Source: Coleofasciculus chthonoplastes F2-STO-03 | Lineage (GTDB): Bacteria > Cyanobacteriota > Cyanobacteriia > Cyanobacteriales > Coleofasciculaceae | Length of the DNA: 10,724 nt | NCBI GenBank assembly: GCA_040222015.1 | Contig: JAVJWO010000074.1 | Coordinates: 1-10,724, forward strand | Direction: 5' to 3' | In this document: piece by piece, positions 1 through 10,724 of the stretch | Layout of the letters: each line of letters opens with the position of its first letter | Position numbering within the stretch: the stretch's first letter is position 1 | Translations under genes and position numbers: made by a program | Notes under the pieces: generated by a model | What the model saw: only the letters and a program-made list of their open reading frames with translations | Told to the model about the DNA's origin: nothing | Database searches by the model: none

Positions 1-63
1 AAAAAACACCGGATTCTCAACCGCGATCGCACGCCAGAAATGTCGCGGTAGTGAGAGGTGGGG

Positions 64-136
64 CAGGGCGGGTTTTGGATAAAGGTTATTGGTTTGTGGG
101 TTAAGTTTGTCCCTAAACCCGCCCCTACAGACAAAT
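64..136. repeat. REP/REPIN-like inverted-repeat element, copy A
   Basis: Arms GGGCGGGTTT (66-75) and AAACCCGCCC(CTAC) (115-128) flank a 39-nt spacer. 110-136 is identical to 934-960. Confidence 0.8.
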
Positions 137-171
137 GAAACTCGCCCTAATCCCAACCTCTAAATTGATCA

Positions 172-756
172 TTAAGCGCCATAGTACGCGGGTTCTTTCC
201 CCGGTTTCCATTTGATATTGCAGCCGATACTAGGTTTTTGTTCTTCACTGACGGGAGACTGCGCCAATACCGAATCGATCGCCGATCGCAGATCCTTACC
301 CGTCACAGGTTTATCATTCCCAGGGCGGCTATCGTCGAATTGTCCTCGGTAGACGAGTTGGCGATCGCGATCGAACACAAAGAAGTCTGGCGTACAGGCG
401 GCTGTATAGGCTTTAGCCGTTTCCTGGCTTTCGTCATAACACAAGGGAAACGTCAATCCTAATTCTTTTGCCATTTCCTTTAACTTCTCAGGCGCATCGT
501 CGGGGTGAGTCGTGGCATCGTTGGCGCTAATTGCTACAATCCCCAGATCTGTATCCTGGTAGTCTCGACCTAGTTTGGCTAATTCTCCCTGTACATGCTT
601 GACAAATGGACAATGACGACAGAGAAATATCACCACTAATCCCTGTTTCCCCGCAAACGTGTCTAAGGATATCGTTTCGCCCGATACTACATCGGGTAAC
701 TGGAATTCTGGGGCTTTGTTGCCTAGAGGCAACATGGTTGAGGCTGTGAGTGCCAT
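172..756 (-). CDS. Thioredoxin-family protein (AhpC/TSA, redoxin-like)
   Basis: Contains APEFQLPD, CRHCPFV (CxxC), YTAACTPDFFVFD, YRGQFDDSRP and PSIGCNIKWK. ATG at 756 is preceded by AAGGAG (770-765), so it is preferred to the ORF-track start at 765. Confidence 0.9.
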   Translation of the reverse strand: MALTASTMLPLGNKAPEFQLPDVVSGETISLDTFAGKQGLVVIFLCRHCPFVKHVQGELAKLGRDYQDTDLGIVAISANDATTHPDDAPEKLKEMAKELGLTFPLCYDESQETAKAYTAACTPDFFVFDRDRQLVYRGQFDDSRPGNDKPVTGKDLRSAIDSVLAQSPVSEEQKPSIGCNIKWKPGKEPAYYGA

Positions 757-817
757 GATTTTCACTCCTTTGGTGACGAATTAGAGGATTTGATTGTTGA
801 ACATATAGGCGGGGAGA

Positions 818-845
818 GGGAACAGCGAACGGGGAACAGGGAACA
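818..845 (+). repeat. Short tandem heptamer repeat (STRR-like), (GGGAACA)x4, degenerate
   Basis: GGGAACA GCGAACG GGGAACA GGGAACA. Confidence 0.65.
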
Positions 846-887
846 AAACGATTTTTTATAAGCTTAACTTCTTAATTGGTTGATTTA

Positions 888-960
888 CAGGGCGGGTTTT
901 GAATAAACGCTATCATCAATCGCAACAGGAAAATCCCTAAACCCGCCCCTACAGACAAAT
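888..960. repeat. REP/REPIN-like inverted-repeat element, copy B
   Basis: Same arms and same 73-nt length as copy A, with a different central sequence. Lies just downstream of the rpaA stop. Confidence 0.8.
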
Positions 961-1001
961 AATGGCGCGTCTCAACACTCAACACTTCTCCAATCCCCAA
1001 T

Positions 1002-1751
1002 CTATTCTGATTTTGCTGAATTGGATGATCCCGCCTCAGCGGTTTCTTCACTATTGGGTAACTCCAGACAGTATCCCGCACCGTATACTGTTTTAATATA
1101 TTGGGGATGACGGGGATCAGGTTCGAGTTTGGTTCTCAGGTGGCGCACATGAACACGAATGGTTTCAATATCGTCATCTGGATCATATCCCCAGACTTCT
1201 TTGAGAATTTCACTAGGAGAAACCGTTTGACCATGACGCTGCAATAAGCAGTGTAGCAGTTCAAATTCCAGGTGGGTTAATTTGACCGTCTGATTAAACC
1301 AAATCGTCTCAAACCGTTCTGGAATCAGGGTCAAGGGACCATAGTTGAGGATTTCCGTATGCTTGGCGGCTTGGGGGATGCGGTCAGTACGTCGCAGTAA
1401 GGCGCGTACCCGTGCTAGCATTTCTTCGAGTTCAAAGGGTTTGGTCAGATAATCGTCCGCACCGGCATTAAACCCTTCTACCTTATCCTGCGTTTGACCC
1501 AACGCCGTCAGCATCAACACGGGAATATCCGTGGTGCGTTCATCCCGACGCAACCGTTGGCAAACGGTAAAGCCATCGACTCGAGGGAGCATTAAGTCTA
1601 GCATGATCAGGTCGGGCTGGAGTTGCAGCGCGATCGCCTGACCCTTGATACCATCGGGCGCTTGGTGAACTTCGTATCCTGCCATTTCTAGGTTAATGGA
1701 GACCAGTTCTGAGATTGCGGGATCGTCATCGATTAAAAGGATTCTATGCAT
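1002..1751 (-). CDS. rpaA: OmpR-family response regulator RpaA (circadian clock output regulator)
   Basis: Receiver domain ([34 protein letters not shown]) and winged-helix domain. RpaA-characteristic segments: [83 protein letters not shown] at 1751; alternative GTG at 1754. Confidence 0.92.
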
Positions 1752-1825
1752 CACTTAAGTGGTTACTAATAGGACTTGTTAAGGTTGGATAAGAACTGTC
1801 ACAGAAAACTACAGATACTGTACCG

Positions 1826-1831
1826 ATTATA
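1826..1831 (-). promoter_or_regulatory. Candidate -10 element (TATAAT) for rpaA
   Basis: ATTATA on the + strand reads TATAAT on the - strand, about 75 nt upstream of the rpaA start. Confidence 0.4.
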
Positions 1832-1895
1832 AGCGCTGATTCTAAACTACTTGTGAAGAAAATGGAAATTTTCTGTTTTTTTTCGGTAAATAAGG

Positions 1896-1901
1896 TATAA
1901 T
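1896..1901 (+). promoter_or_regulatory. Candidate -10 element (TATAAT) driving the omega-RNA
   Basis: Perfect TATAAT 40 nt upstream of the scaffold start, in AT-rich DNA. Predicts a TSS near 1908. Confidence 0.4.
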
Positions 1902-1941
1902 TTATTGCTTTCTTTAATTAATCCCCTTTTTGTCCTAGCGA

Positions 1942-2176
1942 GTCAACGACCCGCGCTTCATCCGTAAGGATAGAAGCGGGGCGTGAAAACGTCCATAGTT
2001 GACCAGCCTGAGTCTTAAATGACTACGCTATTGAAGCCATCACACCTATGAATGCGTTGAGCCAGTTTATAGCTCTGTGGCTTGTCATTAAACATCCGAG
2101 TTGGGTTGAGGAAGTGTGGCAATCATGACAAACTTCAATAGCATTGGCGAGGCTCACATTACCCGTTTAACGGAGG
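1942..2176 (+). ncRNA. IscB-type omega-RNA (HEARO) scaffold, stand-alone (no iscB)
   Basis: Motif order matches IscB omega-RNAs: GTCAAC(GACCC)...GTTGACCAGCCTGAG...GACTACG...CACC..TGCG..GCCAG..CTCTGT..TTAAACA..AGTG..CATTGGCGAGGC..ATTACCCG..GGAGG. Helices: GTCAAC 1942-47/GTTGAC 1998-2003; CGCTTC-ATCC[GTAA]GGAT-A-GAAGCG 1954-78; AGTC/GACT 2011-24; perfect 10-bp GCTATTGAAG 2027-36/CTTCAATAGC 2133-42; CTATGAA 2046-52/TTTATAG 2066-72; pseudoknot GCCAG 2061-65/TTGGC 2144-48; AGCCT 2005-09/AGGCT 2150-54. Confidence 0.85.
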
Positions 2177-2242
2177 ACAAGAAGTTGAACACATTCAACC
2201 TCGTAGTCGAGGTGGTTCTAATAGACCTCCCTGAAGCAGACC

Positions 2243-4357
2243 CTAGTTATCATCATCCTCTTCAGATGACTCCCGGTTCGATTCTTTTTTCAACTCCTCA
2301 AGTTCACGCTGCGTTTGCTCTTTCCCCCGCTTTGCCTCTTTGTAATCGGGTTGATACGTCAAAGCGTTTTCATAAGAGGTCAATGCTTCACTGTATCGCT
2401 TTAGGTTAAATAGAGCATTAGCGCGACTATTCCAGGCTTGGTAATAGCTGCGCTTATGGGCAACAGCTTGGTCATACGCCGCGATCGCGTCTTGGTATCG
2501 TTGCAATATATAGAAGACATTCCCCCGGTTATACCAGGCTTGCTCCGAATTGGGTCTCAGTTTCACCGCCTTCTCGTAAGCCGTTAATGCTTCATCATAA
2601 CGCTCCAATTTATGCAACGCCCAAGCTCGACCATACCACGCCTCATAACTGTTGGGCTGAAGTTTAACCGCTTCTTCAAATGCGGCTAACGCTTCTTGAT
2701 ACTGGCTTAACTTGTTTAAAATACTGCCCTGACTGTACCACGCTCGATAAAAATCTGGCTGAAATTGAACCGCTTTCTGGTAAGACTCCACCGCGTCACG
2801 GTGTTTGTTTAAATTGACAAACGCATTACCCCGTTGATACCAAGATTCGGCGAAATCGGGCTTATATTCTATGGCTTGGTCGTAGGATTGAAGCGCCTCT
2901 TCATACTGTTGTAAATTATGGAATGCCCAGCCACGCTGATACCAGGCTGAGGCATAATTGGGTTGAATCTCTAAGGCTTTATCGTAAGATGCGATCGCCG
3001 CCGAATAGCGCTGTAACTCCATCTGTACCATCCCGCGACGTTCCCAGGTTTCCACGTCCTCCGGTTGCATTTTCGTTACCTGATCAAACGCACTAATCGC
3101 GGCTTCATAACGCTGCAATGCAACTAACGCCTCTCCTCGTCCTTTCCACGCCTCTGGATACTCACGCTGAATTTGAATCGCCTGATCATAAGCATCCAAC
3201 GCCGCCTCAGACTGACCCAATGCCAAAAGCGCATCCCCTTGACCCAGCCAAGCTTCAGCATAGTCCGGTTGCAGTTCAACGGCACGATTATAAGCGCTGA
3301 GGGCGTCCTCATACCGCCTCAACTCCAGCAGTGTTTCACCTCGGTTATAGGATTGAGTCGCGTTGGTGGAATTAATCCAATTGATAATCCCGATTGTCGC
3401 CCCTCCTCCAGCCGCTATTATCGCCCCAGTAATCAAGAACGCCAGTATCAGTTTCTGCCGTTGAGACGATTGAGGAACAGGTGGTAGGGATGGGGATGTC
3501 GCCGCTACAGCCACCGTCGCCTTCGTGGGTTGGGTTAAATCCTGCAACGCCTGCACAGCAGCTTCCGCAGAGGGGTAACGTTGGCGAAAATCGTAGCGGA
3601 TCATTTTATCCAGAACTTTCGCCAACTCTGGAGAAACCGAGGTGCGATCGCGCCAGCACAGTTCTCCACTGTCGGGATCAACGGGCAGTTCCTGAGGCGC
3701 TACCCCGGTTAATGCTTGAATCCCCACAATTCCCACCGCATAGATATCACTACTCAAACGGGGATTCCCATTGGCTTGTTCACTGGGTCGATATCCCGGC
3801 GTACCAATCGCCACCGTAAAGCTAGAGGATTTTCCCTGCACTATCTGAGTGCTAACTTGTTTAACCGCGCCAAAATCAATTAGGACTAACTTGCGATCGC
3901 ATTTACGCCGGATCAGGTTGTGGGGATTAATATCTCGGTGAATCACATGATGCTGATGAACAAACGCTAATATAGTCAGGATTTCCTGCAACAGATCAAT
4001 CACCTGCTGATCTGACCAAGACGTTCCCGGCGTCAATTCTTTACTCAGATTATCCCCTTCAACCAGTTCCTGCACCAAATAAAATTCTTGACTCTCTTCA
4101 AAATAGGCAAATAGCTGCGGAATTTGGTTGTGATGACCCAACTGATGCAGGATTTTAGCTTCCGTTTCAAACAAACGCCGCGCCGTCTGCAAGGTAAACG
4201 GGTCAGTCGCTTGGGGTTTGAGTTGCTTCACCACACAATCGCGATCGCTAGGCAAATGTTGGTCTTGGGCGACAAATGTAGCACCAAACCCACCTTGTCC
4301 CAGTTGCCGCAAGATATTATAGCGTCCACCAATTGTTTGTCCGAGAGCCAAGTTCAT
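2243..4357 (-). CDS. Pkn2-type serine/threonine protein kinase with one TM segment and 10 TPR repeats
   Basis: Kinase motifs LGQGGFG, CVVKQL, HRDINPHN, DFG, GTPGY and DIYAVG. Hydrophobic segment LILAFLITGAIIAAGGGATIGII. Ten 34-aa TPRs (AW..RG..L..L..Y.EA...Y..A....P). Confidence 0.93.
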   Translation of the reverse strand: MNLALGQTIGGRYNILRQLGQGGFGATFVAQDQHLPSDRDCVVKQLKPQATDPFTLQTARRLFETEAKILHQLGHHNQIPQLFAYFEESQEFYLVQELVEGDNLSKELTPGTSWSDQQVIDLLQEILTILAFVHQHHVIHRDINPHNLIRRKCDRKLVLIDFGAVKQVSTQIVQGKSSSFTVAIGTPGYRPSEQANGNPRLSSDIYAVGIVGIQALTGVAPQELPVDPDSGELCWRDRTSVSPELAKVLDKMIRYDFRQRYPSAEAAVQALQDLTQPTKATVAVAATSPSLPPVPQSSQRQKLILAFLITGAIIAAGGGATIGIINWINSTNATQSYNRGETLLELRRYEDALSAYNRAVELQPDYAEAWLGQGDALLALGQSEAALDAYDQAIQIQREYPEAWKGRGEALVALQRYEAAISAFDQVTKMQPEDVETWERRGMVQMELQRYSAAIASYDKALEIQPNYASAWYQRGWAFHNLQQYEEALQSYDQAIEYKPDFAESWYQRGNAFVNLNKHRDAVESYQKAVQFQPDFYRAWYSQGSILNKLSQYQEALAAFEEAVKLQPNSYEAWYGRAWALHKLERYDEALTAYEKAVKLRPNSEQAWYNRGNVFYILQRYQDAIAAYDQAVAHKRSYYQAWNSRANALFNLKRYSEALTSYENALTYQPDYKEAKRGKEQTQRELEELKKESNRESSEEDDDN

Positions 4358-4534
4358 CTGGTTGAAAAGGAAATCCCAGCCTTGCTATGCAGTAATGATA
4401 TGATTGATTCTGACACAAAATTCTGCTAATCCCCTTTCGCCGCCCTATTCCGTGCAACTCCGCCTCTTCGTCTCTCCGCCTCAATACTGCTCAGATAAGC
4501 TGTCAATGAATATTATCTTCCCCATCTCCCATTC

Positions 4535-5407
4535 CTACATCCCAATTGGTTTCGGGATGAAATGACATTGATGCAACTCCCCATTGGGCATCGTCGTACC
4601 GCTCAAATTTGCCCCTTCTAGATTTGTATGACTCAAATTCGCCCCTTGTAAATTAGCACCACTGAGAGTCGCCTCACTCAAATTTGCGTCCTGCAAGTTG
4701 GCATCACGGAAGTCTGTCCAACGTAAGTTAGCCTTACTTAAATTGACCCGACTCAGATTCGCCCCTTGTAAGTTTTCTCTCTTGAGCTGAACACCGCTTA
4801 AATCTACTCCGGCGAGAGAGACATCAGGCGCAATTAAATAAGCACCCCCTTGTTTAAGATTAAACGCTTTAGGAAAACAAGTTTGCAGATTGTACAGACT
4901 GCTTTGCCACTTAACTTGCTCCAGATTTGCCTCACTTAAATCAGTTTCAAATAAATAACTGCGACTCAGATTGCTGCGACTCAGAGTAGCCCCAATTAAC
5001 AGAGAACCCCGCAGATCCGCGCCCAATAGGTTAACCTGGCAGAGGTTAGCACCATTGAGATCAGCACCCATCAACCGGGCAAAACTTAAATTAGTCCCAG
5101 TTAAATCCACACCCGTCAACGTGGCAAAACTCAAGTTCGCCGCCACTAAATTTGCTCCCATCAAATCAGCACCACTCAAGTCAGCACCTCGCAGATTTGC
5201 TCCTTGCAAGTCAACTCCCTGCAAATTGGCATTATGCAGGGTAGCGCGGCTCAAGTTAGCGTGGACTAATGTAGTTTGGCTCAGGTTGGCATGAGTTAAA
5301 TCTACTGCTCTCAGCGTCGCGCCTCTGAGGGTGACTCCATTGAGATCAATGAGAAAAAAATCCCGTTCGCCTGCGGCATATCTGCTCAATAGTTCATCAG
5401 GGTTCAT
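4535..5407 (-). CDS. Pentapeptide-repeat protein
   Basis: Typical cyanobacterial N-terminus ELLSRYAAGERDF. Two runs of A(D/N)Lxx repeats separated by a YNLQTCFP linker. C-terminal TMPNG cap. Confidence 0.93.
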   Translation of the reverse strand: MNPDELLSRYAAGERDFFLIDLNGVTLRGATLRAVDLTHANLSQTTLVHANLSRATLHNANLQGVDLQGANLRGADLSGADLMGANLVAANLSFATLTGVDLTGTNLSFARLMGADLNGANLCQVNLLGADLRGSLLIGATLSRSNLSRSYLFETDLSEANLEQVKWQSSLYNLQTCFPKAFNLKQGGAYLIAPDVSLAGVDLSGVQLKRENLQGANLSRVNLSKANLRWTDFRDANLQDANLSEATLSGANLQGANLSHTNLEGANLSGTTMPNGELHQCHFIPKPIGM

Positions 5408-5675
5408 CTGAATCTACCTTTATGTTTGGCTAACCCTTAGTCGTCTCGTTGCGGAATTTGTACAGCCAATGCCGATTTATTCTCTACAAACAATTGAAAG
5501 GCTGAGTAGAGAGCTTCAACGAGGGTTAATAGATCGGATGCTTTGGCGGCATTCACAGCAACTTGACAAACTTGAGTCGTGACTTCTCTGCAAGTAGATG
5601 CGCTGACCTGATTTATTTTCCCGACAGATCAATCTTAATCATAGCAGTTGCCAGACGTCAAAAAATCGTATAGTT

Positions 5676-6041
5676 TCATCTTTCAAAAGGATTTAATAAC
5701 TGTAATTCCTCAATCCATTGAAAGTTATTTACATTCCGGGTGACTAATATAAGATTATGTGTTAGAGCCGTTCCTGCGATAATGGCATCTCCTACCGTCA
5801 TGCGTCTCATTTGGCGTAGTGCTACAGCTTGATTTAAAACAGGCTGCGAAATTGGCAAGACTAACGCTACCGCAAAAAATTCATCCAGAAGTTGGCGCTC
5901 CATCTCCGTCAAACGATGATAGCCCAATGTTTCAACGTAACTGAGTGCAGAAACGGCTGAATCATGGTTGGCAATGAATTCACGTAACCAGGCATATTCA
6001 GGGCGAGTTGCGTAAATGATAATATTGCTATCCAGCAGCAT
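5676..6041 (-). CDS. vapC: VapC-family PIN-domain toxin
   Basis: PIN motifs MLLDSNIIIY, SALSYVE, DAIIAGTAL and LVTRN..NF. GGAGGAG RBS (6054-6048) supports ATG 6041 rather than 6065. Confidence 0.88.
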   Translation of the reverse strand: MLLDSNIIIYATRPEYAWLREFIANHDSAVSALSYVETLGYHRLTEMERQLLDEFFAVALVLPISQPVLNQAVALRQMRRMTVGDAIIAGTALTHNLILVTRNVNNFQWIEELQLLNPFER

Positions 6042-6306
6042 CATTCGCTCCTCCAGGGCGTTCACGATCCTGTCTGATCTGGCGCTGCCATACCAACGGA
6101 TCGATTTCTGAAAATGCCTGTGACTGCGCTAATTTTTCGAGTATTGCTGCCATTTGTTGCCCACGATTATGGGTTATAGTGATCGCCTCTTCGTCTAGAA
6201 AAGTAACCAGAACCTGAACAGTGCGATCGCCCTGAAACCACTGATTGACTTCCTCTTGCCATTCCAGTAAATTTCCTTTCAGGATTGCCCGAAATGTATG
6301 CAGCAT
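6028..6306 (-). CDS. Putative antitoxin paired with VapC
   Basis: 92-aa ORF immediately upstream of vapC and overlapping it by 14 nt. Beta-rich N-terminus (TFRAILKGNLLEW..VQVLVTFL) and C-terminal DPLVWQRQIRQDR. Confidence 0.7.
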   Translation of the reverse strand: MLHTFRAILKGNLLEWQEEVNQWFQGDRTVQVLVTFLDEEAITITHNRGQQMAAILEKLAQSQAFSEIDPLVWQRQIRQDRERPGGANDAAG

Positions 6307-6324
6307 GACTACTTGCTTTAAAGG

Positions 6325-6346
6325 TTGAACTCTATTCTAACTTCAA
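6325..6346 (-). promoter_or_regulatory. Candidate TA promoter/operator
   Basis: TAGAAT -10 on the - strand (6339-6334) sits inside the inverted repeat TTGAA-N12-TTCAA, about 20-40 nt upstream of the antitoxin start. Confidence 0.35.
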
Positions 6347-6458
6347 GGCGTGCGATCGCTCTTTATTGAATAGTAGTGAACCAGTTGTAACAAACGCAGT
6401 GATAGGAATAGGAGTAAATCCTACTTCGGCTGTAACCATAACAACTATATTCCGCTTC

Positions 6459-6489
6459 CCTCCCCTCGTAGGGGAGGACTAGGGAGAGG
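6459..6489. repeat. GC-rich intergenic hairpin repeat
   Basis: CCTCCCCT-CGT-AGGGGAGG followed by a G-rich tail (ACTAGGGAGAGG). Resembles small dispersed repeats of filamentous cyanobacteria. Confidence 0.45.
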
Positions 6490-6681
6490 TTAACATTTCC
6501 GTTCTGTCAACCGTGCCAAAAATAACAATTGGAAACTCTAAATCTGTTCACAATGAACATTATGCCAGGAAAACAACAAAACTTTAACCCAATAGGTTTA
6601 AGAGTTGTTAAAAGTTATTGAATAGTGATGGAATTCAGGTAGAATCTTCTCTTTATAAGAACGGCGACCTGGATAAGTGAG

Positions 6682-8301
6682 ATGACAACCACAAAAGCCT
6701 TGCAATTTATGCGGAGAACCGCAGAAGATGAACAACTACAGCAACGCCTAGGGGAATTGATCGGGGTTGGTGATGGGGATATCAGTAGTCAAATGGAACT
6801 CGATGAAGCAGAAGCCGACGCCTTGACGGGCGATCGCGCCCCCTTGGTGGTGAAGTTAGCATCCCAGCAGGGGTTTGAGTTTTCCGTTGACGATTTAAGA
6901 ACCGTCGTCGATGCCTTTGGGCGGTATCAGTTAGGAGAACTCTCGGAAGCCGAGTTCTCGCAACGGATTGGATTATCCAACTTAGAGCAAAACACACCAG
7001 ACAGTATTCCCTCGATTAAAAAGACATTAGAATTTGTCTATCGGGGGACTCGCTATCAACGAATTAATGGCAAACTCGTTCCTGTTATCCAACCCACTAA
7101 TTCTACGCCCAGTGTTCTGGAATTTATGCACAAGACATCTGAAGATCAGGGCTTACAGCAACAATTAGCGACAGTGTTGGGGGTTGGTGATGGAGATATC
7201 AGTAGTCAAATGGAACTCGATGAAGCCGAAGCCGACGCCTTGACGGGCGATCGCGCTCCATTAGTTGTTCAGTTTGCCGCCCAGCAGGGGTTTAACTTTT
7301 CCGTTGAAGACTTAAGAACAACGGTAGATGCGTTTCAACAGTATCAATCAGGCGAAATATCGGCTAACGATTTCTCAAAGATTATTTGTGTATCGAACCT
7401 AGATCAGGGAACAAAAGAAAGTATCTCCTCGATTAACAAAACCTTAGACTATGTCTATCGAGGGACTCGTTATAAACGCATTAATGGTAAGCTAGTCCCC
7501 GTACACGAATCGGTGAATTCTACACCCAATGTCCTGCAATTTATGCAGAAAACGGCTGATGATCCCGAAGTTAAACAAAAATTAGAAGCATTATTGGGAG
7601 TCGGTGACGGCGATATTAGTAGCCATGCCGAATTGGATCAGCAAGAAGCCGCTGCGTTAATCGGCGATCGCGCCCCGTTAGTGGTGAAATTTGCGGCTCA
7701 ACATGGGTTTGACTTTTCCGTTGAACAACTCACCACAGTTGTTGATGGCTTTGTGCGATATAAATCCAATGAACTATCCGATCAAGAGTTAGCTAAAATT
7801 CTGGGATTGTCTGATCAAAAGACACCAGCAAGTTTACCCTCAATTAAACAAACTCTAGAGTTTGTCTATCGCGGAACTCGTTACCAAAAAATTAATGGAC
7901 AATTGGTTCCCGTGGAAAAACCAGCAACGACTGTTCCCAAAGTGTTACAGTTTATGCAGAAAACCGCCGAAGATAAACAACTCCAACAACAACTGGGAAC
8001 ATTACTCGGTGTGGGCGATGGAGACATTAGTAGTTATTCAGAACTCGACACCGCAGAAGCACAAGCCCTCACGAATAACGCCCCGGTGGTGGTAGAGTTT
8101 GCTGCCAAACAGGGTTTTGAGTTTTCCAAAGAGGATTTAATTCGGGTTGTTGATGCCTTTGCACAGTATCAGTCGGGTGAATTATCTGAGAAGGAGTTCT
8201 CCAAAATTATTGGCTTTTCCAGTCAAGGAACGAAAGAAAGTTTTCCTACCCTCAAAAAGCTCGTCAGTTTTCTATCGGGCGGTGCGGGTTCCCCTAACTA
8301 G
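6682..8301 (+). CDS. Tandem-repeat protein with four Nif11-leader-like units, function unknown
   Basis: 539-aa open frame. Each unit reads LQFM.KT.ED..LQQ.L...[GVGDGDISS..ELD..EA.AL]...VV.FAA.QGF.FS.EDL......ELS..E(F/L). The first three units continue with (F/Y)VYRGTRY..ING.LVPV. Confidence 0.8.
   Translation: MTTTKALQFMRRTAEDEQLQQRLGELIGVGDGDISSQMELDEAEADALTGDRAPLVVKLASQQGFEFSVDDLRTVVDAFGRYQLGELSEAEFSQRIGLSNLEQNTPDSIPSIKKTLEFVYRGTRYQRINGKLVPVIQPTNSTPSVLEFMHKTSEDQGLQQQLATVLGVGDGDISSQMELDEAEADALTGDRAPLVVQFAAQQGFNFSVEDLRTTVDAFQQYQSGEISANDFSKIICVSNLDQGTKESISSINKTLDYVYRGTRYKRINGKLVPVHESVNSTPNVLQFMQKTADDPEVKQKLEALLGVGDGDISSHAELDQQEAAALIGDRAPLVVKFAAQHGFDFSVEQLTTVVDGFVRYKSNELSDQELAKILGLSDQKTPASLPSIKQTLEFVYRGTRYQKINGQLVPVEKPATTVPKVLQFMQKTAEDKQLQQQLGTLLGVGDGDISSYSELDTAEAQALTNNAPVVVEFAAKQGFEFSKEDLIRVVDAFAQYQSGELSEKEFSKIIGFSSQGTKESFPTLKKLVSFLSGGAGSPN
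6697..8298 (+). repeat. Intragenic tandem repeat, 4 units (spacing 417, 417, 411 nt; last unit shortened)
   Basis: Homologous FM Met codons at 6709, 7126, 7543 and 7954. Confidence 0.9.
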
Positions 8302-8419
8302 GGGCTGCTGAATAAGTGTAGAGGTGAGGGAGAGCAGGGAGAGAAGCAATGTAGAGACGTGCCATGCGCTACTAATACGCAATTTAAATGCATGACAGCT
8401 TAACCGAATAGTATTGGAT

Positions 8420-8479
8420 GTAGGGGCGGGTTTTTCTACTATCGTTTCGGTTGCACCCATAAGCAACTAAACCCGCCCC
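8420..8479. repeat. REP/REPIN-like inverted-repeat element, copy C
   Basis: GTAGGGGCGGGTTT (8420-33), a 35-nt spacer, then AAACCCGCCCC (8469-79). The complete GTAG arm is on the opposite side from copies A and B. Confidence 0.75.
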
Positions 8480-8492
8480 AATTCTCCCCCTG

Positions 8493-8524
8493 AAAAAACA
8501 CCGATCTCCAGTGAGGAAATCGGT
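8493..8524 (-). terminator. Intrinsic terminator of the small 57-aa gene
   Basis: The - strand reads ACCGATTTCC-TCACT-GGAGATCGGT-G-TTTTTT: a 10-bp stem with one G-U pair and a U6 tract, 26 nt after the stop at 8551. Confidence 0.75.
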
Positions 8525-8550
8525 AGTATTCATGTCTAACCACTAGTGAA

Positions 8551-8724
8551 TTAGTCCAAATAGCCCATGAGTTCATCACTCGATTCAGTCGCATTAGCCG
8601 CAATCGGACGATTATTCGGTAAAGGCTGAACATCCAGCGCGGTTACATTTTGATTTCGTCTCGCTAGCGCTTGTTGTGTCTCAGCTTGAGTGCTTCTATT
8701 TTTGGTTGTTGTTCTATCTGCCAT
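8551..8724 (-). CDS. Small hypothetical protein (57 aa), not in the ORF track
   Basis: Manual translation: MADRTTTKNRSTQAETQQALARRNQNVTALDVQPLPNNRPIAANATESSDELMGYLD*. Has its own terminator and an AT-rich upstream region. The C-terminal LPNNRPIA...LMGYLD resembles, from memory, a conserved cyanobacterial hypothetical motif. Confidence 0.7.
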   Translation of the reverse strand: MADRTTTKNRSTQAETQQALARRNQNVTALDVQPLPNNRPIAANATESSDELMGYLD

Positions 8725-8762
8725 AATCTATTACTGTTAAATGGGCTTCTAATCCCAAAATC

Positions 8763-8780
8763 GCTACAAAATATTACAAT
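8763..8780. promoter_or_regulatory. HLR1-like direct repeat (possible RpaB site)
   Basis: GCTACAAA-AT-ATTACAAT against the consensus (G/T)TTACA(T/A)(T/A)-N2-(G/T)TTACA(T/A)(T/A), one mismatch per half. Lies about 40-55 nt upstream of the small ORF. Confidence 0.35.
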
Positions 8781-8837
8781 TATTTTATAGTTTAACAATT
8801 CTGCACGAAAAAAGAAAATTAACCAACCCACCAGCTA

Positions 8838-8871
8838 AATGTAGAGACGTAGCATGCTACGTCTCTACATT
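8838..8871. repeat. Perfect 34-bp palindrome, GTAG-type REP
   Basis: AATGTAGAGACGTAGCA|TGCTACGTCTCTACATT, 10 nt downstream of the ilvD stop. Partial copies at 8348-8366 and about 961-977. Confidence 0.85.
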
Positions 8872-8881
8872 GCCCAAGGAA

Positions 8882-10564
8882 TCACAAATTCAAATCCGTC
8901 ACCGCACCCATACTGCTAGAAGACACTAATTTGGCATACTTCGCCAGCACTCCTTTGGTATATCGGGGTTTGGGAGGTTGCCACTTGGCGCGGCGTTGTT
9001 GCAGTTCCTGATCAGATATATTGATCTGTAATAATCGCGCCGGAGCATCAATCGTAATCGAATCCCCTTCTTCGACTAACGCGATCGCACCTCCAACGGC
9101 AGCTTCTGGGGCAACATGACCGACTACCATACCATAAGTCCCCCCAGAAAAGCGACCATCGGTAATTAATCCCACCGAATCCCCTAACCCCGCACCAATA
9201 ATCGCTGACGTGGGCGCTAACATTTCCCGCATTCCTGGACCTCCTTTGGGTCCTTCATACCGCACCACAATCACATCTCCCGCCTGAATCTTACCCGCCA
9301 AAATTGCATCCAAACAATCTTCCTCGGATTCAAACACACGCGCAGGACCGTTGATTTGGGGCGTTTTCACCCCCGTAATCTTTGCCACCGCGCCTTCGGT
9401 TGCCAAATTTCCTTTTAAAATCGACAGGTGTCCTTGGCTATACATGGGATTATCCCAGGGACGAATTACATCTTGATCCGGGGGCGGTTCATCGGGTACA
9501 TCAGCTAATACTTCCGCTACGGTTTTCCCGGTAATCGTTAATGCTTCACCCTGTAATAAATCATGGACTAGCAGCATTTTCATCACTTGGGGAATACCGC
9601 CAACCTGGTGTAAATTCGTGGTCACATATCTGCCACTGGGTTTAAGATCACACAGAACCGGAACTCTAGCGCGAATCGTTTCAAAGTCATCCAGAGTTAA
9701 ATTTACCCCGATCGCACGGGCAATTGCCAGTAAATGCAGTACCGCATTCGTTGATCCACCCACTGCCATAATTACCGAAATGGCATTTTCAAAAGCTTGG
9801 CGAGTTAAAATCTGTTGGGGTAGAATTTGCTGACGAATCGCATCAACCAGAACAAACGCCGATTTTTCCGTACTGTCCGCTTTTTCGGCATCTTCGGCTG
9901 CCATTGTTGAGGAATAGGGTAAACTCATTCCCATGGCTTCAAATGCCGAGGACATGGTGTTGGCGGTGAACATTCCGCCACAAGAACCTGCACCGGGACA
10001 AGCGTTTCGTTCGACGGCTACCAGTTGTTCTTCAGTAATCTTACCCGCACTATGTTGTCCCACCGCTTCAAAGGCGCTGACAACGGTTAAATCTTGTCCA
10101 TCCAGATGTCCGGGTTTAATGGTTCCCCCATAAACAAAGATGGCAGGAATATTCAGCCGCGCGATCGCAATCATCGCTCCAGGCATATTCTTATCACAGC
10201 CACCAATTGCCAGCACCCCATCCATACTTTGACCATTACAGACGGTTTCAATGGAGTCAGCAATCACTTCCCGTGACACCAGGGAATATTTCATCCCCTC
10301 GGTTCCCATAGAGATACCATCGCTAATGGTAATCGTACCAAAGACTTGCGGCATTGCCCCCGCTTGTTTTAATCCGGCTTCTGCCCGCAGCGCCAACTCA
10401 TTGATGCCCATATTACAGGGCGTGATTGTACTATACCCATTCGCTAACCCAACGATTGGCTTAGTAAAATCGCGATCGCTAAAACCGACAGCACGAAGCA
10501 TGGCACGATTTGGCGATCGCTGCACACCTTGGGTAACGACTTGACTTCTCAGGTTATCTGACAT
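8882..10564 (-). CDS. ilvD: Dihydroxy-acid dehydratase
   Basis: Motifs [71 protein letters not shown] and [16 protein letters not shown] near 10575-10579. Confidence 0.97.
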
Positions 10565-10602
10565 TGGCTTAATTTCCTTTGTTAATAAACTACCCAGACC
10601 TG

Positions 10603-10722
10603 CTAAGAGCTGAGGTCTGGGTTTTTAGTAGCCCTGAAGTCATTGAACAAGCTAAGACTTCGGCGTGAGCGCTCAGTCGAACGCTGAACATACTCGATAG
10701 TTCGGCTTAGCTTGCACGATAA
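10603..10722 (-). CDS. tnpB: Probable C-terminal tail of TnpB (partial; 5' part outside the window)
   Basis: Open frame from the window edge: [13 protein letters not shown][RSTERSRRS][17 protein letters not shown]. The stop falls within the right-end hairpin loop, as is usual for tnpB. No RuvC or zinc-finger motifs are visible in the window. Confidence 0.55.
10657..10683. repeat. 27-nt palindromic small dispersed repeat, apparently inserted in-frame in tnpB
   Basis: ACTTCGGCGTGAGCGCTCAGTCGAACG: central palindrome TGAGCGCTCA flanked by TTCGGC/GTCGAA. Removing it restores ...VQLSLF... Confidence 0.55.
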
Positions 10723-10724
10723 CC

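Follow-up and report, generated by a model that had tools for sequence, protein, structure and literature searches.

A four-unit protein of Coleofasciculus chthonoplastes F2-STO-03 belongs to a stand-alone, Nif11-derived family and is very probably not a RiPP precursor

The DNA analysed here, referred to as the window, is a stretch of 10,724 nucleotides from Coleofasciculus chthonoplastes F2-STO-03 (GenBank assembly GCA_040222015.1, contig JAVJWO010000074.1, positions 1 to 10,724 of the forward strand). One open reading frame (ORF) of the window encodes a protein of 539 aa built from four tandem units of the Nif11 fold, the fold of a class of leaders of peptides that are ribosomally made and undergo post-translational modification (RiPPs). 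This protein is very probably a stand-alone, Nif11-derived repeat protein rather than a RiPP precursor. Each unit, as judged from profile comparisons, is homologous to the Nif11 domain. The unit constitutes an uncharacterised, stand-alone family of its own, derived from the Nif11 fold and found as proteins of about 130 aa in many cyanobacteria.

Repeat architecture and homology to Nif11

The four units measure 139, 139, 137 and 124 aa when the protein is split at its GVGDGDISS anchors, and they are 52–67% identical to one another in pairwise comparison. A preliminary description of this DNA had given four units of about 139 aa, which these values bear out. Tandem Repeats Finder reported a period of 417 nt in the gene, with 2.3 copies, 75% matches and a score of 1012. 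The GVGDGDISS motif is exact in all four units, with first residues at 28, 167, 306 and 443, and YRGTRY is exact in all three internal tails, with first residues at 120, 259 and 396. The units end in IGLS, ICVS, LGLS and IGFS respectively, and the protein itself terminates in LSGGAGSPN. The tail of unit 4 (..LKKLVSFLSGGAGSPN) is like the tail of single-unit homologues and unlike the YRG linker. The protein is acidic (isoelectric point 4.67) and contains a single Cys and no Trp. Net charge within each unit ranges from -7 to -12 in the core and from +2 to +3 in the tail.

Pfam Nif11 (PF07862) matched the whole protein in four stretches with 73.9 bits, against a cut-off of 23.8, and each unit passed the same cut-off when scored alone (26.1–26.9 bits). 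Comparison of single units with the Nif11 profile had been set beforehand as a refuting check, and the similarity held. The NCBIfam model TIGR03798 (leader_Nif11) scored 63.6 bits (cut-off 32.3), summed over three stretches of the protein. When the four units were aligned with 100 single-unit homologues (alignment A1, 104 sequences), all 104 members had a Nif11 match at E ≤ 0.01. When A1 was compared by hhalign with five Nif11 proteins of the ordinary kind encoded in the same genome, the probability was 94.7% and the E-value 6.4e-8 over 78 columns. The likeness to Nif11 reported in the preliminary description is thus borne out. The hhalign alignment also placed an insertion of about 22–25 residues between the second and third helices of the Nif11 fold, in agreement with the earlier view that an invariant GVGDGDISS insert splits the leader, and it set the G-L of the units onto the G-G of a true leader.

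The top match in a profile search of PDB sequences was the MppE Nif11 leader (9zn4_A, E 0.042), with unit positions 1–24 and 55–97 aligned. VIA-align superposed the unit model on 9zn4 with a Z-score of only 3.1 and a root-mean-square deviation of 4.3 over 65 residues, at rank 49, and the matches in the ESM Atlas were Nif11 clusters only. The MppE leader forms a four-helix bundle (residues 2–15, 17–25, 37–43 and 48–51), behind which lies a disordered tail that contains an L(X)4L motif (10.64898/2026.10.04.756588). AlphaFold2 predicted helices at residues 3–15, 17–27, 42–49, 53–62, 69–83 and 89–95 of unit 1, so the bundle appears to be retained, with one extra helix contributed by the insertion. 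The ECOD group of Nif11 is the X-group named 'LigA-like domain' (PMC12353581).

The full-length AlphaFold2 model had a mean predicted local distance difference test (pLDDT) score of 67.0 and a predicted template-modelling score of 0.27, with the cores at pLDDT 71–90. Residues 99–141, 237–279, 377–417 and 513–539 had scores below 50. These values suggest four independent domains joined by flexible linkers, with no confident packing of one unit on another. Around YRGTRY..ING.LVPV, each linker took the form of a small three-stranded sheet in the model, with low confidence.

Separation from RiPP biosynthesis

Two of the functions proposed in the preliminary description were tied to RiPP biosynthesis, namely a multi-cassette precursor processed in trans and a decoy or scaffold for RiPP enzymes. 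A role of this kind, as such a precursor or as a decoy or chaperone for Nif11-leader-recognizing enzymes encoded elsewhere in the genome, now appears very improbable. In its favour are the TIGR03798 score above cut-off, the name 'Nif11-like leader peptide family natural product precursor' given by NCBI to some orthologues, and the gene content of the source genome, which holds true N11P precursors with GG sites (L002, L004 and L005) as well as seven Peptidase_C39 and two LanC-like matches. The protein itself lacks the features of these precursors. The positions aligned with the G-G of the leader are G-L, C-V, G-L and G-F in units 1–4, whereas in the true precursors of the source genome the leader closes with AGG or FGG and the core behind it is short and odd. 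As the preliminary description had it, the internal units are without GG; the sole GG of the protein lies five residues from the C-terminus, in LSGGAGSPN, and is not kept in the other lineages whose sequences were inspected. A core that is variable or rich in Cys is likewise absent, and the protein has a single Cys. Within the protein the tails are conserved; they are under purifying selection, with a ratio of nonsynonymous to synonymous substitution rates (dN/dS) of 0.20–0.30, and those of units 1–3 keep the Y-x-G motif of the family.

Genomic context gave the same picture. Pfam scans of the main ORFs found no maturase or C39 gene within the window, as had been noted before. The seven other main ORFs encode an AhpC/TSA protein, an OmpR-type response regulator, a Ser/Thr kinase with TPR, a pentapeptide-repeat protein, a PIN-domain protein, a protein without a Pfam match and a dihydroxy-acid dehydratase. 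Beyond the window, 80 related loci were retrieved and the 76 of them that hold a family gene were analysed, yielding 408 neighbours within three genes. Forty-one of these neighbours were of at least 550 aa, and 30 of the 41 were scanned against Pfam, the other 11 being dropped because their first 60 residues match scanned proteins or the dehydratase of the window; the 367 smaller neighbours were clustered only. No LanM, LanC, Peptidase_C39, YcaO or radical-SAM domain was found among the 30 large neighbours scanned. Genomes G276 and G140 (complete, 2.5 Mb, 99% complete), which each carry a single-unit member, had no Peptidase_C39 and no TIGR03798 matches. The function of the family would therefore be independent of RiPP machinery, and a decoy or scaffold for RiPP enzymes is unlikely as a family function.

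Classical Nif11 precursors were also observed in the source genome in their own right. At least three Nif11-leader precursors with GG sites and unusual cores occur on contigs C64, C112 and C89 (L002, L004 and L005). One of the cores consists of CCCYPYYGGG plus KRG repeats. On contig C89, the precursor match (3652–3798) and a LanC-like match (4496–5578) are about 0.7 kb apart.

Distribution and conservation of the family

A word-indexed search found 93 homologues of 296–944 aa and 428 shorter ones, 120 of the latter being listed. When the profile of A1 was run over 214 proteins, 107 had one unit, 12 had two, 75 had three and 20 had four. In a profile search of 1.84 billion representatives, 92 proteins fell at E ≤ 0.001, and 45 of these also reached E ≤ 1e-10. 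With just 92 proteins at this threshold in so large a library, the unit family is compact. Single-unit homologues are 122–138 aa long, start with M-x-T-x-x-V-L-x-F-M, carry the insertion and end in ..L-K-R-L-T-R-Y-L-S-K-T-Y-L-G. Neither the titles and abstracts listed by literature searches nor the passages of Haft et al. (2010) that were consulted held an account of proteins with tandem Nif11 domains.

Distribution within the phylum is patchy. At E ≤ 1e-10, and with up to ten candidates per genome scored, the family was found in nine of 401 sampled genomes, including the source genome, and in none of three other genomes of Coleofasciculaceae. The repeat-protein gene is the only member in the source genome. 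Among the named carriers, thin filamentous cyanobacteria (Leptolyngbya, Elainella, Stenomitos, Pantanalinema and Thermosynechococcaceae) predominate, and Coleofasciculus is also represented. The 90%-identity cluster of the 539-aa protein consists of Coleofasciculus proteins, which bear the name 'hypothetical protein' or else 'Nif11-like leader peptide family natural product precursor'. A three-unit form of 382 aa was found in metagenome-assembled genomes labelled Haliea sp., on contigs of up to 1.3 Mb. Haliea is a gammaproteobacterium.

A tree of units from 27 hand-picked proteins (FastTree, midpoint root) grouped the four units of the 539-aa protein together and with the units of P0003, P0004 and P0019, while unit-by-unit orthology was kept in other clades. 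This grouping suggests that multi-unit forms arose, or were homogenized, separately in several lineages. Variants of the gene were also seen in close Coleofasciculus relatives (L033, 4653–5918; L032, 7938–8823; protein P0218). A 400-aa three-unit form joins the start of unit 1 to the remainder of unit 2, and one Coleofasciculus locus has the gene split into ORFs of 185 and 131 aa. Since these variants come from metagenome bins, they may reflect repeat collapse or mis-assembly.

Over 469 distinct units, seven positions are 100% conserved, namely F9, G30, D31, G32, E44, F67 and L72. D41 and L48 are conserved at 98%, G64 at 97%, I34 at 95%, S35 at 94% and G85 at 92%, and position 33 is D in 68% and N in 31%. 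The insertion motif over these units is G-(V)-G-D-G-(D/N)-I-S-x-x-x-(E)-L-D-x-x-E-x-x-A-L. A second conserved loop, at positions 80–92, reads (Q/E)-x-(V/Y/H)-x-x-G-E-(L/I)-S-x-x-(E/D)-F, and Y126 and G128 of the tail are also kept in the family. Comparison with three Coleofasciculus orthologues of equal length (three of six loci were left out because their gene length differed) gave dN/dS values of 0.15–0.20 for the gene, 0.12–0.17 for the cores and 0.14–0.32 for the insertion, besides the value given above for the tails.

EF-hand likeness

The likeness of the units to EF-hand proteins, as read from alignments and profile scores, is real but partial. Ten weak matches of the search of 1.84 billion representatives were inspected, and three of them are true multi-EF-hand proteins (EF-hand_7 141–376 bits), with whole-library E-values of 2.5e-5 to 1.9e-4. 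HMMER aligned unit positions 80–91 onto the 12-residue calcium loops of these proteins. Centrins were among the weak PDB matches in the profile search (E 0.22–0.48), and phmmer of the whole protein against the PDB returned calbindin only (E 0.44 and 0.9). The homologue P0014 passes Pfam EF-hand_7 in the region of the second loop, with 37.9 bits against a cut-off of 30, and several relatives carry the JGI label 'Ca2+-binding EF-hand superfamily protein'.

An EF-hand loop comprises 12 residues: positions 1, 3, 5 and 12 provide oxygen ligands, position 6 is Gly and position 8 is hydrophobic. With D31 taken as the first residue of such a loop, the insertion places D at position 1, D/N at 3 and S at 5, with E (68%) at 9; this is close to the parvalbumin-type loop, D-x-D-x-S-G. 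Positions 6, 8 and 12 do not fit. A resemblance of the insert to part of an EF-hand loop had been put forward in the preliminary description. The second loop fits at EF-hand positions 6, 8, 9 and 12 (unit positions 80–91).

Proposed function

On the evidence of these sequences, the 539-aa protein may tentatively be viewed as a multivalent binding protein whose units would each use their conserved acidic loop to hold a divalent cation (Ca2+). A cation-binding loop between two helices would be formed by the insertion (G-D-G-D/N-I-S, four residues, L-D, two residues, E). The second loop, G-E-L-S-x-x-(D/E)-F, would be a degenerate EF-hand that pairs with the insertion loop. Multiplication of the unit would raise capacity or avidity, as in multi-EF-hand buffer proteins, and the basic Y-x-G tail may dock on a partner or on the acidic core.

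Several results weigh against cation binding by the units. Pfam EF-hand_7 scored 19.5 bits on the 539-aa protein, below the cut-off of 30, and only two of the 104 units in A1 matched any EF-hand family at E ≤ 0.01 (EF-hand_8). In the insertion loop, Gly is missing from position 6, a hydrophobic residue from position 8 and Glu from position 12, which varies, and the conserved acids lie at 11 and 14. The second loop has Q/E, V/Y/H and S/A at positions 1, 3 and 5, none of which is the acidic pattern of an EF-hand. The insertion loop had a pLDDT below 50 in the single-unit model; the 10-residue block of the insertion averaged 77 in the full-length model. Foldseek gave no PDB match at E ≤ 0.001 with either the single-unit or the full-length model, in the kind of structure search that the preliminary description had proposed. 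The best VIA-align Z-score was 4.9, and that of calbindin was 4.0, both within the range of common helical arrangements. Finally, examination of the neighbourhoods of homologues, also proposed beforehand, revealed no neighbour family in more than 12 of the 76 loci and no gene pointing to calcium or to another process. The commonest neighbours were a pentapeptide-repeat protein (12 loci) and a 244-aa protein at -1 on the same strand (11 loci). Three further neighbour clusters occurred in 10 loci each; one consists of a 133-aa protein encoded on the opposite strand, at -1 or -2. Neighbour conservation over the 76 loci is lineage-level synteny only.

A metal-independent docking scaffold is almost as likely as cation binding. 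The Nif11-fold bundle would serve as a protein–protein surface, as the leader bundle of MppE does for its enzyme, and the role of the conserved loop would be a structural one; joining several units in a chain would provide avidity towards a partner that is oligomeric or repeated, with the basic Y-x-G tails as second contacts. As far as the MppE preprint goes, the sole function shown for the Nif11 bundle is protein–protein recognition that depends on tertiary structure (10.64898/2026.10.04.756588). The beads-on-a-string model with flexible linkers and the copy number of one to four agree with docking, as does the fact that the L(X)4L/F spacing of the leaders is kept while EF-hand ligand positions are not conserved. 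On the other hand, no partner is indicated by the neighbouring genes, and the complete conservation of G-D-G and E44 would suit a ligand site better than a surface patch.

A carrier-protein-like module, in which a four-helix bundle would bear a prosthetic group or phosphate on the conserved Ser35 of the G-D-G-D-I-S loop, has the least to commend it and is hardly credible. Seven acyl or peptidyl carrier proteins were matched by VIA-align over model residues 11–80, and the Nif11 bundle has been termed reminiscent of acyl carrier proteins (10.64898/2026.10.04.756588). These matches, with Z-scores of 3.3–3.6, again lie within the range of common helical arrangements, however, and Ser35, which is 94% conserved and gives way to Gly in 5%, does not qualify as an obligatory site of attachment. 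The examined loci showed no neighbouring synthase or transferase, and the unit motif is D-I-S. The motif of carrier proteins is D-S-L. PADLOC, for its part, gave one sub-threshold LmuA match on the 539-aa protein (E 9.4e-4, 16.8 bits) and none for the single-unit protein.

Among these readings, cation binding by the conserved acidic loop is retained, tentatively, as the proposal. The preliminary description had also envisaged a Nif11 fold repurposed as a metal-binding repeat protein; the fold and the stand-alone family are supported, and metal binding is tentative, the loops being EF-hand-like but not canonical. It is a more remote prospect, and rather unlikely, that the unit represents a new kind of Ca2+-binding module of prokaryotes, built upon the fold of Nif11 RiPP leaders, with the tandem forms as bacterial counterparts of multi-EF-hand calcium buffers.

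The YRG tail

The YRGTRY tail had been compared with the cyanobacterial family DUF4278 in the preliminary description. DUF4278 forms the N-terminal part of IF17, the inactivating factor of glutamine synthetase, and DUF4278 genes are often preceded by a glutamine riboswitch (Klahn et al., 2018, PMC6212724). The YRGxxY tails might accordingly work as DUF4278 does within IF17 and link the protein to the control of nitrogen, a role for which there is little to be said and which is most improbable. FVYRGTRYQ of the tail does resemble LQYRGVRYQ of DUF4278 proteins of the source genome, and Pfam DUF4278 (PF14105) gave weak matches of 17.4 bits on the 539-aa protein and 22.3 bits on P0044. Both scores are under the 25.3-bit cut-off, however, and hhalign of the tails with four DUF4278 proteins of the source genome gave a probability of 7% over 19 columns. 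No glutamine riboswitch or other Rfam match was found upstream of the gene (E ≤ 1), and the single-unit homologues have Y-L-G, not Y-R-G. Moreover, in the IF17 study, the residues needed for binding glutamine synthetase are placed in the C-terminal part of IF17 and not in DUF4278 (PMC6212724). What remains of the earlier comparison is the short motif: by sequence the YRG tail appears to share it with DUF4278 and is not a member of that family.

Position of the gene within the window

The features of the repeat-protein gene are listed in Table 1. The genes on both sides of it are on the other strand, and the gene is therefore probably its own transcription unit. RNA-library contigs about 93% identical to the gene and covering 6808–8300 were found in four metatranscriptome runs, contigs which do not prove transcription; an example is a contig of 2,043 nt from run X13. 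The four runs bear four study codes, all from 2017, and possibly belong to one campaign.

Table 1. Features of the repeat-protein gene, with positions counted from the first letter of the window
Feature	Position	Strand	Basis or remark
Whole gene, encoding the acidic four-unit protein of 539 aa	6682..8301	+	ORF, Pfam, composition
Unit 1, residues 1-139, with a helical core (1-97), then a flexible stretch and a basic tail bearing YRGTRY	6682..7098	+	
Unit 2, residues 140-278	7099..7515	+	
Unit 3, residues 279-415	7516..7926	+	
Unit 4, residues 416-539	7927..8298	+	
GVGDGDISS motifs, units 1-4	6763..6789, 7180-7206, 7597-7623, 8008-8034	+	Opens the insertion that ordinary Nif11 domains lack
EF-hand-shaped loop of unit 1, GRYQLGELSEAEF, residues 80-92	6919..6957	+	No acidic ligands at loop positions 1, 3, 5
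Equivalents of the EF-hand-shaped loop in units 2-4	7336-7374, 7753-7791, 8161-8199	+	
YRGTRY motifs, linkers 1-3	7039..7056, 7456-7473, 7867-7884	+	
Promoter-like site: TTGAAT, 16 nt, TAGAAT	6618..6645	+	37 nt upstream of the ATG; consensus match only

Close downstream of the gene, at approximately 8419–8479, is a short dispersed repeat some 60 nt in length. At least 45 further copies with 83–91% identity occur in the source genome, 40 of the 1001 first-look candidates having been scored. Contig depth in the four RNA-library metagenomes was 45,000–98,000 at this repeat and about 350 over the repeat-protein gene.

Two other elements of the window were observed. A full-length HEARO RNA (Rfam RF02033) lies at 1942–2162 on the forward strand (143.1 bits, gathering score 83, E 1.3e-30), between the response-regulator gene and the Ser/Thr-kinase/TPR gene. 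No large ORF of the HNH/IscB type lies beside it, and a 97-aa ORF (2116–2409) overlaps its end. HEARO was the sole Rfam match in the window, and no RNA family was found next to the repeat-protein gene. The PIN-domain gene (5676–6065, reverse strand; Pfam PIN 45.2 bits) overlaps an upstream ORF of 92 aa without a Pfam match (6028–6306). Together, the two (5676–6306, reverse strand) look like a toxin–antitoxin pair of the VapBC type, divergent from the repeat-protein gene.

Significance

On present evidence, annotation pipelines and RiPP genome mining mislabel members of this family as N11P precursors, and such assignments are false positives. They can be removed by simple criteria, namely presence of the G-D-G-D/N-I-S insertion, lack of a GG site and conservation of the tail. 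The family indicates that the Nif11 leader fold also occurs as an autonomous, selected and expandable domain outside RiPP biosynthesis, which bears on the origin of long, structured leaders.

To our knowledge, few cytosolic calcium-binding proteins have been described in cyanobacteria. If the conserved acidic loop binds Ca2+, the family would be a new one among them. Should the units indeed form a new Ca2+ module, the family would link helix-loop-helix proteins of the EF-hand kind with Nif11 leaders, and would suggest small, acidic, cation-binding proteins as the source from which long, structured RiPP leaders were recruited.

Comparison with known systems

DUF4278 and IF17 share with the 539-aa protein a short (hydrophobic)-x-Y-R-G-x-x-Y motif and a cyanobacterial distribution. 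They are set apart from it by the sub-threshold Pfam score, the low hhalign probability and the lack of an upstream riboswitch described above. EF-hand pair proteins, such as centrin, calbindin D28k and multi-EF-hand proteins, share the helix-loop-helix pattern G-x-(L/I)-S-x-x-(D/E)-F, are likewise acidic with one unit multiplied within the chain, and give weak reciprocal sequence matches. They differ in that the second loop of the units is without acidic residues at 1, 3 and 5 and the acids of the first loop lie at 11 and 14 rather than at 12.

Small Nif11-domain proteins that are not precursors are already represented in the source genome by two stand-alone Nif11 proteins (PF07862) of 69 and 72 aa (L001 and L003). 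These consist of a single domain and have neither the G-D-G-D/N-I-S insertion nor the EF-hand-shaped loop nor the Y-x-G tail. Fusion of two leader-type domains within a single chain has a precedent in the fused tandem NHLP-Burk precursors (Haft et al., 2010, PMC2887384). Those proteins are RiPP precursors that adjoin maturases, whereas the 539-aa protein shows neither feature.

The closest comparison is with the Nif11 RiPP leaders themselves. The predicted unit helices 3–15, 17–27 and 53–62 are the counterparts of helices 2–15, 17–25 and 37–43 in the MppE leader (PDB 9ZN4), and the hydrophobic positions of the N-terminal helices correspond. The L(X)4L/F spacing of the leaders is also kept near the end of the unit (LSEAEF, ISANDF, LSDQEL and LSEKEF). 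The region that is disordered in MppE is, in contrast, predicted to be helical and EF-hand-shaped in the units. Compared with Nif11 RiPP leaders in general, the units have a conserved insertion of about 22–25 aa after helix 2, lack a GG site and a core peptide, and end in a conserved, basic tail; the domain is repeated up to four times, and it does not cluster with maturases.

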